IMG/VR virus record: IMGVR_UViG_2541047722_000009
Origin: a virus
Lineage: Duplodnaviria; Heunggongvirae; Uroviricota; Caudoviricetes
Direction: 5' to 3' (one strand)
DNA length: 23,233 nt
Translations under genes and position numbers: made by a program
Shown: one piece after another, positions 5,757 through 15,970 of the stretch
How the letters are laid out: every line of letters begins with the position of its first letter
Position numbering within the stretch: position 1 is the stretch's first letter
Notes under the pieces: model-generated
The model's database searches: none
What the model was told of the DNA's origin: nothing
The model's input: the letters and a program-made list of their open reading frames with translations, nothing else

Positions 5757-6395
5757 TTAAATATTTTGTTGAATTTTAAAGCATACGCCCAATATGCAAG
5801 ATAGATCATCCAGCATAATTGAAGGGTAGCGAGGATTCGTGGGGACTAAAAGAATATCCGGCCCTTCTATCTCCAGTTTACGAATGACAGGTGTTGTGGT
5901 CCCTTTGGGTAAGGCAAGGACAATATTTCCTGGTTGTACGGTTCGATCGGGATCAACAAAAACTGTTGAACCATTTGGGATGGAAACTCCCCCACCAGAT
6001 GTTGACATACTGTCACTCTCTAGAACAACTGCAAAGGTATTGGCCGGGATTTCTCCGACAAGCTGCACACAAGAGGTTATTGAGGAATTTTTCATATAAT
6101 CACTCCAGCTTGCTGCCTGCTGAAGTGATAGTAGCGGAACCGTTTTTATCGGCGGTAAAGATAGATCAAGCGAATCACCTGTATTTAACTCTCCTCCATT
6201 AAGAAGCCAATTTTCGTTTACTTTCAATATTTTTGCCAGTGAACTTATGTAACGCGAGGACGGCGCTCCTCCACCGTTCATCCATTGACTTACGGAGCCT
6301 TTTGATGCGCCAGTGGCATTGACAAGGTCTTTGCCTTTCAGGTTTAGCGCATGCATACGTTGGGTTATGCGTTCAGATATTGTTTGCTTGTTCAT
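5757..6395 (-). CDS. cI: Phage CI-type repressor (N-terminal XRE HTH, C-terminal LexA-like S24 peptidase domain)
   Basis: 212-aa ORF. HTH region LKGKDLVNATGASKGSVSQWMNG. C-terminal SDSM…K (Ser-Lys dyad context) typical of S24 autoproteolytic repressors. Divergent from cro-like gene. Confidence 0.85.
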   Translation of the reverse strand: MNKQTISERITQRMHALNLKGKDLVNATGASKGSVSQWMNGGGAPSSRYISSLAKILKVNENWLLNGGELNTGDSLDLSLPPIKTVPLLSLQQAASWSDYMKNSSITSCVQLVGEIPANTFAVVLESDSMSTSGGGVSIPNGSTVFVDPDRTVQPGNIVLALPKGTTTPVIRKLEIEGPDILLVPTNPRYPSIMLDDLSCILGVCFKIQQNI

Positions 6396-6457
6396 GTTTT
6401 GATTTTAAAACACAGATGGTTTTGTTTCTTGACTTTCTTTGGTTTTGATTATTAAAC
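6396..6457. promoter_or_regulatory. OR-like divergent promoter/operator region: two GTTTT-N6/7-(A)AAAC operator-like palindromes and a TTGACT -35 for the rightward promoter
   Basis: GTTTTGATTTTAAAAC at 6396-6411 (immediately adjacent to the cI start codon) and GTTTTGATTATTAAAC at 6442-6457. Both resemble the PL-side palindrome at 5671-5692. TTGACT at 6429-6434. Confidence 0.4.
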
Positions 6458-6486
6458 TTTTGGCGTTCAGTTTTATGGAGCGACTC

Positions 6487-6729
6487 ATGAAAAAATCAGA
6501 AGTATTAGGCTATTTTGGCGGAGTTGTTAAAACAGCCGCAGCTCTAGGAACGTCAAAAACCACAGTCAGCATGTGGGGGGAAGAGGTTCCGTGGAAATGG
6601 GCGTTGCTAATTCAGGCAGTCACTGCCGGGGCGCTCAAATATGAGTTACACATACCGACGGTTGTCATTCCCGGTTCTGATCATAATCCGCCTTCTAACC
6701 AAGGGGGGATTCATGAAAATCAAGCATGA
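6487..6729 (+). CDS. cro: Cro-like HTH regulator (YdaS-like)
   Basis: Start chosen at ATG 6487 with GGAG RBS 6 nt upstream (track ORF begins earlier at 6439). HTH-like GGVVKTAAALGTSKTTVSMW. Divergent from cI. Confidence 0.7.
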   Translation: MKKSEVLGYFGGVVKTAAALGTSKTTVSMWGEEVPWKWALLIQAVTAGALKYELHIPTVVIPGSDHNPPSNQGGIHENQA

Positions 6730-7138
6730 ACACATCCGCATGGCGATGAATGCCTGGGCGCGTCCTGATGGCGAAAAAGTTCCGGCAGCTGGAATAACCC
6801 AGGCTTATTTTGAGTTGGGTATGACGTTTCCTGAACTGTACGACGACAGCCATCCGGAAGCCCTGGCTCGCAATACCCAGAAAATTTTCCGCTGGATAGA
6901 GAAAGACACCCCTGATGCAGTTGAAAAAATTCAGGCGTTGTTACCAGCGATCGAAAAGGCAATGCCACCTTTGCTGGTGGCCAGAATGCGCAGCCACAGT
7001 TCAGCTTATTTTCGGGAGCTGGTGGAGACGCGGGAGCGACTGGTGAGAGACGCTGATGATTTTGTCGCAGTGGCAATCGCCGGTTTCAATCAGATGAACC
7101 GTGGTGGCCCGGCAGGAAATGCTGTGGCAGTACATTGA
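6713..7138 (+). CDS. YdaT-like protein (CII-position regulator)
   Basis: 141-aa product from internal Met (MKIKHEHIRMAMNAW…) with GGGGGG RBS. N-terminus and C-terminal …AVAVH resemble my recollection of Rac YdaT. Position directly after cro. Confidence 0.6.
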   Translation: MKIKHEHIRMAMNAWARPDGEKVPAAGITQAYFELGMTFPELYDDSHPEALARNTQKIFRWIEKDTPDAVEKIQALLPAIEKAMPPLLVARMRSHSSAYFRELVETRERLVRDADDFVAVAIAGFNQMNRGGPAGNAVAVH

Positions 7139-7209
7139 CTGACAATAGCCATATCGAATCGCTTCCGGCAACTCGTGAGTAAAAAGATTCGGTATCAGAA
7201 GAGGTGAGT

Positions 7210-7392
7210 ATGGCTAACGCCTGGCTCAGATTATGGCATGACATGCCAAATGACCCTAAGTGGCGAACAATTGCCAGGGTGTCAGGGCAGCCAATTGCAA
7301 CAGTGATGGCAGTGTATATCCACCTCCTGGTGAGCGCGTCACGAAATGTCACGCGAGGTCACATTGATGTCACGACGAGTCACGACAGATAA
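7210..7392 (+). CDS. Putative replication protein, N-terminal part (YdaU-position); reading frame ends inside the iteron-like repeat block
   Basis: ATG 7210 with AGAGGTGA RBS. Product MANAWLRLWHDMPNDPKWRTIARVSGQPIATVMAVYIHLL… stops at 7390-7392 (TAA). The downstream frame continues in another phase. Confidence 0.5.
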   Translation: MANAWLRLWHDMPNDPKWRTIARVSGQPIATVMAVYIHLLVSASRNVTRGHIDVTTSHDR

Positions 7393-7411
7393 AGATACAG
7401 ATAAAGATACA
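7338..7411. repeat. Iteron-like direct repeats (5 x GTCAC(G) at ~10-bp spacing) followed by a 2 x 12-bp tandem repeat GATAAAGATACA; candidate replication origin embedded in the replication gene
   Basis: GTCACG at 7338, 7348, 7369, 7379 and GTCACA at 7358. GATAAAGATACA at 7388-7399 and 7400-7411. By analogy, lambda ori iterons lie inside gene O. Confidence 0.5.
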
Positions 7412-8020
7412 GATCAAGAAGATCAAAACACTATGGTCCATGGCGTAAAAAACGCCACGAACCAGGCAGGGGATGTTCAGACCGTCAATCTTGGTCAGCC
7501 AGCAGGCACGACACCGGAAGCCGATTCAGCGTATGCGCTGAAAGCCGATTCGGGCGCTGTGCAGCAGGTGATGACCGCAAGGCCGGAGCAATCACACCAA
7601 CTGCAGCAGCCCGAAGCCGATTCCGCCATTCAGCGGGAAGCCGATCGGGTAGTCCCGGAAAACACCGGGCAGTCTGTGGGACGAGTGGATTATCCGGATG
7701 TGTTCGAACAGGTCTGGCGGGAGTACCCGTTGCGTGCTGGGGCAAACCCGAAGAAATCCGCTTTCAGTGCCTGGAAGGCCAGATTACGCGAGGGGGTGCC
7801 ACCAGAGGCCATGCTGGATGGCGTGAGGCGTTACGCAAGATACTTGGCGGCTACCGGGAAAACGGGAACGGAATTTGTTCAGCGAGCGACGACGTTTTTT
7901 GGACCGGACCGGAATTTTGAGAACCCCTGGTTGCTCCCGGTAAGCGGCACGAACAACCAGCGTTGTGTGAATCATATTTCTGAACCGGATAACGAAATTC
8001 CGCCGGGCTTCAGGGGGTAA
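7346..8020 (+). CDS. Putative replication protein, C-terminal part (low-complexity acidic linker plus conserved C-terminal domain); precise start uncertain
   Basis: 224-aa ORF in a different frame from 7210-7392, overlapping it by 47 nt. DKDTDKDTDQED linker is encoded by the tandem repeat. C-terminal region looks like a conserved globular domain. Confidence 0.5.
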   Translation: MSREVTLMSRRVTTDKDTDKDTDQEDQNTMVHGVKNATNQAGDVQTVNLGQPAGTTPEADSAYALKADSGAVQQVMTARPEQSHQLQQPEADSAIQREADRVVPENTGQSVGRVDYPDVFEQVWREYPLRAGANPKKSAFSAWKARLREGVPPEAMLDGVRRYARYLAATGKTGTEFVQRATTFFGPDRNFENPWLLPVSGTNNQRCVNHISEPDNEIPPGFRG

Positions 8021-8060
8021 GTGTTAATTTCTGGTCATGAGGTAATTTTCAGGAGGGCTT

Positions 8061-8483
8061 GTGGCAAAAGTTTTTACACAAGAAGAGCGGGAAAAAATTA
8101 AAGGACAGGTTGTTGAACTCGTACGCCAGAGTGGGCGTGAGACGTTACGGCAACTGGAAGTCAAGACAGGTGCGACAAGATATCTGATGAGCGTTCTCGC
8201 AAGAGAGCTGGTTGCCAGCGGCGATGTATGCAACTCTGGTTACGGGTTATTCCCGTCTGAACAGGCGCGTAAGGACTGGCAAAATGCCCGTAAAAAGCTC
8301 TCAAGGGCAAAGCTGAAGAAACCATCTGCGGTTGATCCGGACCTTATCTGGTCATTACCTGACGGAGAAATACGTCGCTACGACAGGCGTCAGAACATAA
8401 TCTGTCGCGAGTGCCGGAAGAGTGAAGTTATGCAGCGCATATTGTCGTTTTATCAGGGTGATGTTCGGTATTTATTGAAGTGA
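8061..8483 (+). CDS. Hypothetical protein (possible DNA-binding protein) in the replication module
   Basis: 140-aa ORF, GTG start with AGGAGGG RBS at 8051-8057. No family recognised by eye. Confidence 0.6.
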   Translation: MAKVFTQEEREKIKGQVVELVRQSGRETLRQLEVKTGATRYLMSVLARELVASGDVCNSGYGLFPSEQARKDWQNARKKLSRAKLKKPSAVDPDLIWSLPDGEIRRYDRRQNIICRECRKSEVMQRILSFYQGDVRYLLK

Positions 8484-8614
8484 CGAGATTAAAGTGCATT
8501 AGTTCAGATGCAAATTGACATTTTGTGGCACAGGGTAGAGCTAGCGTGGTTGTCCGCTTTGTGCCAATAGCGGACATTGCTGGCTCATGGTATGTTAGTT
8601 TAAGGAGGCAGGTT

Positions 8615-9637
8615 ATGCCCTGTATTTCGCTGTGGTATAATAGTTGCGCAATTGATACAAGGGAGCGTTACATCGTGAAAATTGTTTTCGAGGTTAATGG
8701 AAAGAAAGTTCCACTAAAATCTTTAAAATACATAAGCAAAAAAGATCAACTCGAAGTAATGAAAAACTGGTTCTTTGAAAACTTTGAAGATCCGGCAAAT
8801 GCTTGTCCGTATGAAAGTAGAGAAGGTGGCTATGCTTACATATATGGCGGGCCGTATGATGCGAGCGAAGAACTACAATCCATCTTCGGTCAATATGTTA
8901 AATCTGAGTATATTGAGGAATTAGTAGATGAATTACAAACACAATGTTTTGACTGGTCTGGAAACTCAAATAATATAGATGATTGGTACGATGATGATAT
9001 CTACGACGCTGTAACGTCTTCCGGTAATCCGTATTTAAAATTCATTGATAATATCGATAAAATAAAAAAACTTGCAAAAGATAAAACTGAACAACAGCAA
9101 AAAAACCACTTGCTTAGTTTGCTCTACACGAATGTTATTACAGCTTTGGAAACGCTTTATGTTGAGCTATTCATTAATTCTATAGAGAAAGATGATGTCT
9201 ACATAGCCAATTGTATAGAAAAAGGTAAGACTGAATTTAAAGTAAGCAAAGATATTGCTGCGTTGCCTTTCAAGGGTGAACCCATCGAGAAAATTAGGGG
9301 AGAGCTAATCAGGTCAATCAAGGAACACTTGATCAGTGCAAGCTGGCATAGCACTAAAAAGGTAATCGACCGCTATGAAGCTACATTCGATATAAAAGTA
9401 CAAAAAGACTGTCCGATAGAAGCTATTGAATTGGCAACCCTCAATCGAAATCACTTAGTGCATCGTGGTGGAAAGGATAAAGAAGGGAACCTCGTAGTGA
9501 TTACAGACCAGGATCTTGAAACGCTGATTGAAAATGCATCGAACCTGGCAATTATGCTCTACAACAGTTTAAATGTAGCAACGAATAAAACCACCATTTT
9601 GCAACCAGATGACAAACCGTTCATTCATGAATTTTAA
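8615..9637 (+). CDS. Cargo protein A of AT-rich two-gene cassette: uncharacterized protein with C-terminal R-x4-H (HEPN-like) motif; candidate abortive-infection/defense effector
   Basis: Start taken at ATG 8615 (AGGAGG at 8603-8608, 6-nt spacer). Alternative GTG 8675 (AAGGGAG RBS, preceded by extended -10 TGgTATAAT at 8633-8641). Track ORF begins at 8525. Motif LATLNRNHLVHRGG encoded at ~9446-9463 in a predicted helical C-terminal region. Sharp drop in GC from ~8640. Confidence 0.7.
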   Translation: MPCISLWYNSCAIDTRERYIVKIVFEVNGKKVPLKSLKYISKKDQLEVMKNWFFENFEDPANACPYESREGGYAYIYGGPYDASEELQSIFGQYVKSEYIEELVDELQTQCFDWSGNSNNIDDWYDDDIYDAVTSSGNPYLKFIDNIDKIKKLAKDKTEQQQKNHLLSLLYTNVITALETLYVELFINSIEKDDVYIANCIEKGKTEFKVSKDIAALPFKGEPIEKIRGELIRSIKEHLISASWHSTKKVIDRYEATFDIKVQKDCPIEAIELATLNRNHLVHRGGKDKEGNLVVITDQDLETLIENASNLAIMLYNSLNVATNKTTILQPDDKPFIHEF

Positions 9638-9652
9638 TAGCGCAGGTCATAC

Positions 9653-10654
9653 ATGGATATTCGCACACGAAAGACAAAATTTTTAGAGTCGTTAGATTCA
9701 ACTGAAGTGATACGCAAAGCAGTAAGTCTCGCTATAGATTGCATTATTGATAATCATAATAGTAATGAAGATACCCCCTTAGTTATTACCAGCTATGATG
9801 ATCTCTGTAGAATCCAGGTGCTAAATTATGTACAGGAGTTTTGCGAAGCTGCATTCCCTGATATGGATGAATATTACTTTAGTCCTAACATACTTCGCAT
9901 CAACGGCAAGACTAGTGAAGAAGCTTGTATTAACTTAATTAAACTCTTAAGAAGTACAAAAGGCATGCTATTCTGGTCCGATGCCCCATCGTGGTTCGCT
10001 AGCCTCCCCGACGGATTATTCCATGTTGTTAACATTGATCAAAAAATCGTTACTCGCGGCCTTAATAAGAAAAACTCTAAGCCGACAATAATCAATAAAG
10101 ATTACAGTGTAGATACACTACTATCAGAGCTATTTTTGAATGGCGCACACATGGAGCAACCCAACGTACACAACGTTTCTGAGGGAAACATGAAGTTCTA
10201 TGATGAATGCCATGCTGGATTAATCAGACCAATACCCGCTCCAATAGGCGCGTCATACGATGAAGAGATCACAATTAATTCTCCAGATTGGCAAAAGCTC
10301 GCGTGTGTAGCTTTACGCCGCTATCAGTCGAAGGAATGTCATGACGGAATGCAATGGGATACAACCGATCATGGTTGGACTGATGTAATCGCGTATCCAT
10401 TCGTCGAAGAAATACAATCAATGGATAATAGTGGTTATCGACAATGTTTAGTTGGGCTGGTCACAATAAACAATTCAAATGCAAATTCTCCGTACCTATC
10501 TACCGTTTGGATACATCCATTTTATCGCAGGAGAGGGTTATTAAGTAAGTTATGGCCAAAATTACAAGAGTTATATGGAAGTAACTTCGAAATTGAGCGA
10601 CCTAATGAAAATATGAAAGCATTTCTGAAAAGTGCGAAACACGCAGATTACTAA
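9653..10654 (+). CDS. Cargo protein B of AT-rich two-gene cassette: uncharacterized protein, C-terminal region with GNAT-like motif pattern
   Basis: 333-aa ORF 15 nt downstream of gene A (operon). AT-rich codon usage. C-terminal LVGLVTI…WIHPFYRRRGLLSKLWPKL…NENMKAFLKSA resembles GNAT beta4-alpha3 (motif A) and motif B. Confidence 0.75.
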   Translation: MDIRTRKTKFLESLDSTEVIRKAVSLAIDCIIDNHNSNEDTPLVITSYDDLCRIQVLNYVQEFCEAAFPDMDEYYFSPNILRINGKTSEEACINLIKLLRSTKGMLFWSDAPSWFASLPDGLFHVVNIDQKIVTRGLNKKNSKPTIINKDYSVDTLLSELFLNGAHMEQPNVHNVSEGNMKFYDECHAGLIRPIPAPIGASYDEEITINSPDWQKLACVALRRYQSKECHDGMQWDTTDHGWTDVIAYPFVEEIQSMDNSGYRQCLVGLVTINNSNANSPYLSTVWIHPFYRRRGLLSKLWPKLQELYGSNFEIERPNENMKAFLKSAKHADY

Positions 10655-15797: not shown

Positions 15798-15873
15798 GGC
15801 CCTTTAGCTCAGTGGTGAGAGCGAGCGACTCATAATCGCCAGGTCGCTGGTTCAAATCCAGCAAGGGCCACCA
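15798..15873 (+). tRNA. tRNA with CAU anticodon, most similar to E. coli tRNA-Ile2 (lysidine; ileX/ileZ-like); Met not excluded
   Basis: Manual cloverleaf: acceptor GGCCCTT/AAGGGCC, D-stem GCTC/GAGC, anticodon loop CUCAUAA, T-loop TTCAAAT, 3' CCA encoded. Anticodon arm matches my recollection of ileX. Confidence 0.85.
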
Positions 15874-15880
15874 TCACATA

Positions 15881-15957
15881 CCGCCATTAGCTCATCAGGA
15901 AAGAGCGCCAGCCTTCGAAGCTGGTTGCGCGGAGTTCGGGTCCCCGAAGGCGGTCCA
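15881..15957 (+). tRNA. tRNA-Arg (anticodon UCG), slightly non-canonical T-arm
   Basis: Manual fold: acceptor 6/7 bp, anticodon stem CCAGC/GCTGG with loop CUUCGAA, CCA encoded. T-loop TTCGGGT has G at position 58 and the T-stem has one mismatch. Confidence 0.65.
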
Positions 15958-15970
15958 TTATCTGTATCCT

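Follow-up and report, generated by a model that had tools for sequence, protein, structure and literature searches.

The DNA considered here, IMG/VR virus record IMGVR_UViG_2541047722_000009 (Caudoviricetes), is a stretch of 23,233 nucleotides (nt), referred to as the window. It is an Escherichia coli lambdoid prophage in which a replication gene is split across two reading frames at an array of short direct repeats. Comparison with near-identical genomes showed that the two open reading frames (ORFs) at 7210-8020 are one pseudogene of the replisome-organizer family and that the lesion is a deletion between short direct repeats 260 base pairs (bp) apart. The native gene contains two arrays of the repeat which, together with an adjoining A-rich tract, are probably a phage replication origin embedded in the initiator gene, as judged from their architecture and by analogy with known systems. 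The whole account, which combines a dead lambdoid initiator gene, an inter-array deletion and an origin within the gene, is considered likely.

The initiator gene and its deletion

A sequence-only reading of the window had described the split of the gene and the repeats lying across it, and the ORFs, the positions of the GTCAC(G/A) repeats and a 12-bp tandem repeat were all found to be present. The first ORF starts at GTG 7204 or ATG 7210 and ends at 7392, and the second frame is open from ATG 7346 to 8020. GTCACG occurs at 7338, 7348, 7369 and 7379 and GTCACA at 7358, with spacings of 10, 10, 11 and 10 bp. Five copies of GTCAC within 50 bp were obtained in none of 2000 shuffles of the window, the largest shuffled cluster consisting of four copies, seen once. 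Over the whole window GTCACG is not over-represented (12 observed vs 9.2 expected), its copies outside the array being scattered singletons, and therefore it is the clustering that constitutes the signal.

Outside the 260-bp deletion, the 23 kb of the window agree at ~99.97% identity with UTI89, MS8345 and genomes like them. Its full length is matched in two pieces by UTI89, MS8345 and NCTC11151, those records containing ~260 additional bases. In UTI89 the split site is spanned by a single coding sequence of 1071 bp that encodes a protein of 356 amino acids (aa; WP_001262357.1), and the alignment of the window with this genome contains one gap of 260 bp, flanked by ATGTCACGAC, the gene being otherwise identical. 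The native arrays of the UTI89 gene, of four and five copies and 260 bp apart, span gene nt 129-165 (GTCAC(G/A) at nt 129, 139, 149 and 160) and nt 389-435 (GTCACG at nt 389, 399, 409, 420 and 430). The sequence ATGTCACGAC is part of iteron 4 in each native array, and the window keeps exactly one copy of it. The array left in the window is a hybrid of the two and has the spacing of the native right-hand array (Table 1).

Codons 57-139, the greater part of the predicted DNA-binding domain, were lost through the deletion, which also changed the reading frame. These codons hold the invariant residues D58, M77-Q78-G79, G89-W90 and R93-Q94 of the predicted winged-helix core, while the fragments that remain are identical to residues 1-56 and 140-356 of the UTI89 protein. 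The ATG at 7346, which opens an ORF of 224 aa, falls in out-of-frame sequence of the left array; in public contigs with the deletion a product of 217 aa is called for the 3' remnant. The sequence-only reading had suggested that a change in the copy number of a 10- or 11-bp iteron could have inactivated the gene recently. The change is indeed recent and inactivating, but it is the 260-bp deletion between the arrays that produced it. One iteron gained or lost was rejected as the explanation of the frameshift, since the 260-bp gap is the only difference that the alignment contains in the gene.

Table 1. Features of the initiator locus and its neighbours, in window coordinates
Feature	Position	Strand	Description and basis
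YdaT/CII-like gene	6713..7138	+	Upstream neighbour; early rightward operon made up of cro-like, ydaT-like, initiator and DUF977 genes
Initiator gene, 5' remnant	7210..7392	+	Native codons 1-56 (MANAW...HIDVTT), four out-of-frame codons (SHDR), stop; UTI89 alignment and ORF list
Hybrid iteron array	7338..7384	+	Five GTCAC(G/A); copies 1-3 from left array, copy 4 the fusion point, copy 5 from right array
Deletion junction	7367..7376	+	10-bp microhomology ATGTCACGAC, one copy per native array; the 260 bp between copies lost
Initiator gene, 3' remnant, native frame	7367..8020	+	Native codons 140-356: disordered linker, helical C-terminal domain, DnaT-like tail; alignment and AlphaFold (AF2) model
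A-rich, A+T-rich tract	7385..7433	+	Directly after last iteron; tandem repeats of ACAGATAAAGAT, two GATC sites; candidate DNA-unwinding element
Inverted repeat	7434..7464	.	13 pairs (TGGTCCATGGCGTAAAAAACGCCACGAACCA); borders the A+T-rich tract
DUF977 / Ren-like gene	8061..8483	+	140 aa; Pfam PF06163, E 4e-29; phrog_142; outside the lesion

The intact region occurs in ~1,700 of 5,426 complete E. coli genomes, about a third of them. A search of IMG/VR by alignment of the N-terminal domain covered the best 80 loci, all with identical N-domains, and thus informs about the normal state of the locus and not about its diversity. All 80 of these best loci have the layout of four plus five copies, three of them with one copy lost to a point change, and in all of them the gene is a single ORF or reaches the end of the contig before a stop. 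For the 75 loci in which a stop is reached, the product has 352-368 aa. The sequence-only reading had asked whether a single ORF of ~270 aa is the norm; homologues do give a single ORF, but one of 356 aa within the range quoted.

The earlier assignment of the locus to replication holds for the intact allele. Over its entire length (positions 1-356 of 356) the UTI89 protein is matched by phrog_3729, 'replication initiation protein' (E 5.4e-258); weaker matches are to PHROGs whose annotations read replisome organizer, DnaD-like loader and primosomal protein. The name used by NCBI for the E. coli family is 'phage replisome organizer'. The copy in the window, with codons 57-139 gone and the frame shifted, is not an intact single ORF of PHROG 3729. 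A Pfam scan at E up to 10 gave no match to the lambda O family and no model for the intact protein.

The N-domain (residues 1 to ~138) and the C-domain (~222-356) are found separately in other phages, and in sister proteins the same N-domain is joined to a DnaT-type domain (PF17948). In an AlphaFold model built from 17 sequences the N-domain is helical and confidently predicted, with a predicted local distance difference test score (pLDDT) of ~80-88; disorder is predicted for residues 128-244, and residues 245-330 make up a helical C-domain. A resemblance to the tail of DnaT is seen in the last 24 residues, with 19-20 bits to NCBIfam NF002770, a score that does not reach the cut-off of 201, and a profile search of the PDB gave marginal matches to DnaT chains only (E 0.35-0.54). 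This resemblance hints at the recruitment of a helicase and not at membership of the DnaT family, and the tail would suggest direct use of the host DnaB/DnaC. Homologues P0046 and P0050 have the N-domain and the second array in common with the E. coli gene and continue into unrelated C-terminal domains right after the DKDT peptide repeats and the A-rich tract; the …IPPGFRG tail recurs in P0046 on a different C-domain. Because the C-domain is exchanged just after the A-rich tract in these two proteins, the candidate origin would also be a recombination boundary between protein modules.

The candidate origin within the gene

In eight of ten homologues the commonest 6-mer of the gene is the iteron, with a phasing of 10-11 bp, and two arrays are found in eight of ten at ~nt 125-225 and 310-485. 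The iteron is GTCACG in E. coli, in P0042, in P0003 (5+6 copies) and in the Pseudomonas phage phita81A, which has only the N-domain in common (69.5% identity), its C-domain being unrelated to that of the E. coli protein. It is GTAACG in P0087 and P0078, CGAACGC in the spring-water phage ct2G2228 (47% identity) and GCAACG in the Ralstonia phage Firinga (38% identity). The sequence of the iteron therefore appears to covary with the divergence of the initiator N-domain, four types being accommodated in one layout.

An A/T-rich tract follows the last iteron directly in all eight homologues examined, with an AT content of 0.70-0.83 vs 0.42-0.47 over the whole gene, and these tracts are mostly built on a AGATAAAGA-like motif. 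In the window the tract contains the GC minimum of the gene (0.33) and has an AT skew of ~0.5; ACAGATAAAGAT is present twice, with a degenerate third copy, at 7385-7420. Small palindromes stand at the same relative place in phita81A and Firinga. The locus thus contains at least three direct repeats phased at about one helical turn and, next to them, an A+T-rich region that is a candidate for unwinding, as in iteron origins. The repeat is read in all three frames, and what it encodes falls in parts of the protein that vary in length and sequence, both of which favour a role of the repeat as DNA. The earlier suggestion of an origin in the initiator gene is upheld in that the repeats behave like iterons and their layout is conserved; that the origin is active we infer from the sequence.

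An inverted copy of the iteron, CGTGAC, lies ~30 nt past the first array (L001 3302-3307, corresponding to nt 192 of the UTI89 gene) and is gone in the window. Inverted copies were seen at nearly the same position in phita81A, P0042 and P0003, and in Firinga the phage's own iteron is inverted at nt 195.

The layout can be compared with that of well-studied phages. Lambda gene O contains, in this order, direct repeats, an A+T-rich tract and a palindrome. The same succession is found here, likewise at the boundary of an N-terminal DNA-binding part and a C-terminal recruitment part of the initiator, and the gene occupies the same place in an early rightward operon, after cro- and cII-like genes. 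Damage by deletion between iterons is also a classic of lambda: its origin lies in gene O, and most of the classical ori mutations are reported to be deletions that keep the frame (PMC6022878). The two systems differ in that the present cores are of 6 bp at a spacing of 10-11 bp, whereas the lambda iterons are inverted repeats of 18-19 bp; in that two arrays 260 bp apart replace the one block of four; and in that there is no P-like gene and the lesion is out of frame.

The oriL of phage SPP1 consists of direct repeats together with an AT-rich unwinding element inside gene 38 and is bound by gp38, which also binds a second site, oriR, outside the gene (PMC6316719). The present family resembles it in having the candidate origin in the organizer's own gene, in the two-domain build of the protein and in the name 'phage replisome organizer'. 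It differs in that SPP1 has the loader gp39 and the helicase gp40 downstream, of which the window lineage has neither, and a repeat scan of the SPP1 gene gave no two-array pattern phased at 10 bp. The family appears to resemble lambda O/ori and SPP1 gp38/oriL in its way of working and, by sequence comparison, is a member of neither. DnaD, DnaB of Bacillus subtilis and DnaT are host proteins whose genes have no cognate iterons, and the score against DnaT was 19 bits vs 201. In the plasmid iteron origins (pPS10/RepA, R6K/pi) the iterons, of ~17-22 bp, lie outside the rep gene, whereas here a phage module carries them within the coding sequence.

In the literature searched, which comprised few papers from subscription journals, neither these iterons nor an origin of this family was described, and searches on Rac oriJ and on the replication modules of non-lambdoid Stx phages gave no account of this origin.

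Recurrence of the deletion and alternative readings

A 45-mer across the junction occurred in none of the 5,426 complete E. coli genomes and had no exact match in IMG/VR. The only match in complete E. coli genomes that covered at least 80% of it, at 92% identity, came from strain 30EVA2, in which the gene is intact. At least 12 public contigs, all of independent samples, encode the exact 60-aa stub with the same junction, in two prophage contexts and flanking haplotypes. Contig L008 is identical to the window and UTI89, and L006, L007 and L009 match 30EVA2; L010, which ends soon past the junction, possibly represents a third haplotype. Haplotype-specific single-nucleotide polymorphisms are located 80 bp upstream of the junction and 216 bp downstream of it. 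The simplest reading of these sequences is that the same 260-bp deletion arose more than once.

In Shigella sonnei (P0024) a separate, in-frame deletion of 270 bp between the same arrays, leaving 264 aa, was found on at least 24 contigs; it runs through a 21-bp repeat, the longest common to both arrays. In P0015 the second array is tandemly duplicated. Taken together, these sequences show the intragenic iteron arrays as apparent hotspots of deletion. The common protein variants of 324 aa arise from a 96-bp direct repeat in the linker.

Two further observations concern the plasticity of the gene. A direct repeat of 36 nt is present at 7514-7549 and 7610-7645, 96 bp apart, in the part of the linker with the PEADS… peptide repeat, and the 324-aa variants lack exactly the 32 aa between its copies, so that the pair would mark a second deletion-prone site in the initiator gene. 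The hexamer/12-mer tract at 7385-7420 (ACAGAT/AAAGAT, encoding the DKDT repeats) is polymorphic in length in otherwise identical genes, moving in steps of 2 aa and giving ORFs of 352-368 aa.

Several points weigh against the account given above. With regard to the protein, Pfam PF09681 (Phage_rep_org_N) gave 12.8 bits (E 0.12), under its threshold of 23.3 bits, and among 17 homologues only one matched it even at E < 0.1. The profile-to-sequence comparison with SPP1 gp38 by hhalign gave a probability of 0.2%, that is, no detectable similarity, and homology to characterised organizers is suggested at the level of the fold only, in a model of low overall confidence (predicted template modelling score, pTM, 0.28). 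The proposed role of the repeats as an origin draws on architecture, covariation and analogy. The two-array pattern is ambiguous in ctGfd272 and was not found in the short gene of the Microcystis phage Mwe-JY25; therefore the layout is not universal. As for recurrence, all contigs bearing the deletion belong to short-read assemblies and not to finished genomes; moreover, a short gene-conversion tract could in principle mimic an independent origin on different haplotypes.

It is unlikely, though conceivable, that the repeats are cis-elements bound by the gene's own product for autoregulation, as a transcriptional roadblock or for partition-like pairing, the origin lying elsewhere in the prophage. 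Plasmid iterons also mediate autorepression and handcuffing, and SPP1 gp38 has its second site, oriR, outside its gene. On the other hand, phased iterons beside the strongest A+T-rich tract of the gene reproduce the layout of known origins, and this layout is conserved in eight diverse homologues. The arrays lie 130-430 nt downstream of the start, in the coding region, which is a poor position for an operator, and the 23-kb window contains no other iteron cluster.

The sequence-only reading had also considered a sequencing artefact. That the 260-bp gap arose in sequencing or assembly, the source strain being intact, is very improbable, even though the junction is absent from all of the finished E. 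coli genomes, its carriers are all short-read assemblies and the region is repetitive. A join of 10 bp is far under the k-mer sizes of assemblers and too short to mislead them; collapse would be expected at the 21-bp repeat, with a gap of 270 bp. The junction is identical in the independent samples, on different haplotypes and in different prophage contexts, and many S. sonnei assemblies carry, as a fixed allele, the other deletion between these arrays.

The chance is smaller still that the repeats are a by-product of a repetitive peptide, with low-complexity loops of S, R, V and T, and have no function at the level of DNA. The segments that they encode are indeed variable-length, low-confidence parts of the protein, namely a loop near residues 44-57 and the beginning of the linker, where many sequences would be tolerated. 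The iterons occur, however, in all three reading frames and encode different peptides (SR, VT and GH), and therefore the repeat is conserved as a feature of the DNA and not as a peptide repeat. In addition, the phasing of 10-11 bp and the two arrays persist while both the repeat sequence and the peptide change.

The notion of two genuine overlapping genes, or of programmed frameshifting at the repeats, has next to nothing in its favour apart from both frames being open and the second having an ATG at 7346 and 7367. Homologues, close or distant, have one uninterrupted ORF and do not show the two-gene arrangement that would have refuted the sequence-only reading; the gene is intact in the ~1,700 complete genomes and split in none, and the best 80 IMG/VR loci are free of the split. 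The split form is without the conserved segment of the predicted winged-helix core, residues 57-139, and neither a slippery site nor a conserved second start came to light. The split ORF at the repeat array is accounted for in full as a deletion pseudogene.

Proposed mechanism and prophage context

The deletion, its junction, its recurrence and the conserved two-array layout with covarying iterons are the observations from which a model of an origin within the initiator gene can be drawn; origin activity, binding by the N-terminal domain, the route of helicase recruitment and the mechanism of deletion are inferred. In the intact gene the first array would encode a surface loop of the N-terminal winged-helix domain, and the second the start of the disordered linker, followed by the A+T-rich tract and the small palindrome. 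The N-terminal domain would bind the iterons, and the bound arrays would help to open the A+T-rich tract. The C-terminal domain with its DnaT-like tail would then bring in the host DnaB/DnaC or, in some relatives, a phage IstB-like loader. The deletion in the window joined the two copies of ATGTCACGAC, probably as a RecA-independent event by replication slippage or single-strand annealing, and left the 60-aa stub and an unanchored C-terminal frame of 217 aa.

Since the DNA-binding domain has been lost, the prophage should not initiate its own replication. Since the join is in register, an array of five iterons with native spacing still abuts the A+T-rich tract, and replication might still start at this rebuilt array with initiator provided by a related phage. 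The two arrays flank the segment for the DNA-binding domain, so that one in-register deletion kills the initiator and yet rebuilds the right-hand array beside the candidate unwinding element. It is tempting to speculate, although we hold it quite doubtful, that the two-array layout is a built-in 'fuse' and that the recurrent deletions, that of S. sonnei included, were selected to lock the prophage in place. If this were true, the origin would be fired in trans by a superinfecting or co-resident relative, and the prophage would become a satellite-like, helper-dependent replicon.

The order of genes in the prophage is integrase, RecE-like exonuclease, dicB, ydfABC, S24 repressor, cro-like gene, YdaT/CII-like gene, initiator gene and DUF977, and beyond these hokD, RusA, antiterminator, transfer RNAs (tRNAs), lysis genes and terminase. 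The earlier remark that no gene for a DnaC/P-like helicase loader follows the initiator is correct, no such gene being present in the window after 8061-8483. It points to nothing unusual, for this is the normal arrangement in a sub-lineage with an intact gene: DUF977 also lies directly 3' of the intact initiator gene in UTI89 and 30EVA2, and therefore the lack of a loader does not belong to the lesion. In phage vB_EcoS-689R5 a short gene occupies the position of DUF977 directly after an intact initiator gene. Other relatives have an IstB/DnaC-like gene or a DnaB-like helicase gene immediately 3' of the initiator. In L011-L013 and in S. sonnei (L016/L017) an IstB/DnaC-like ATPase follows the initiator, S. 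sonnei adding DUF1627 before DUF977. The initiator module thus exists both with and without a loader of its own, and the window lineage goes directly to DUF977.

The comparison with MS8345 gave, apart from the 260-bp gap, six substitutions and one 1-bp homopolymer indel. The latter, the sole indel besides the deletion, is at 18589 (5 G in the window vs 6 G in MS8345), between a small hypothetical gene and the lysozyme gene. A scan of 6300-8600 for promoters and terminators gave counts at chance level, the hairpin at 7434-7464 being the sole notable item.

Some other genes of the prophage deserve mention. The minus-strand ORF at 5757-6395 is open over 212 aa and corresponds to a repressor with a helix-turn-helix and an S24-peptidase domain. 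In the matching region of the near-identical UTI89 and MS8345, RefSeq annotates its C-terminal 113 aa only, as 'LexA family protein', whereas other gene calls give 212-214 aa; the 113-aa call is probably an under-annotation of the start site. DUF977 and hokD are separated by two genes on the plus strand, at 8525-9637 and 9653-10654, of which the first weakly matches a HEPN/RES N-terminal domain (phrog_17908) and the second, also weakly, a GNAT C-terminal domain (phrog_16994); they may be a moron or a defence pair. Downstream of the DNA methyltransferase/antiterminator region, three tRNAs are clustered at 15798-16047, with anticodon CAT (Met by ARAGORN, Ile by RefSeq), Arg-TCG and Arg-TCT.

In this strain the prophage copy is probably no longer able to replicate autonomously, and a deletion between the arrays represents one simple route of prophage decay. 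The comparison defines a candidate origin for replication modules that are very common in prophages of E. coli, Shigella and Salmonella, its features being a pair of phased iteron arrays, an A-rich tract and iterons of four specificities in step with the N-terminal domain. The pattern known from lambda O and SPP1 gp38 is hereby extended to another family, and the understanding of phage origins is unchanged; the candidate origin, with its two arrays, iterons that covary and deletions recurring between the arrays, extends known phage biology in a useful and unsurprising way.

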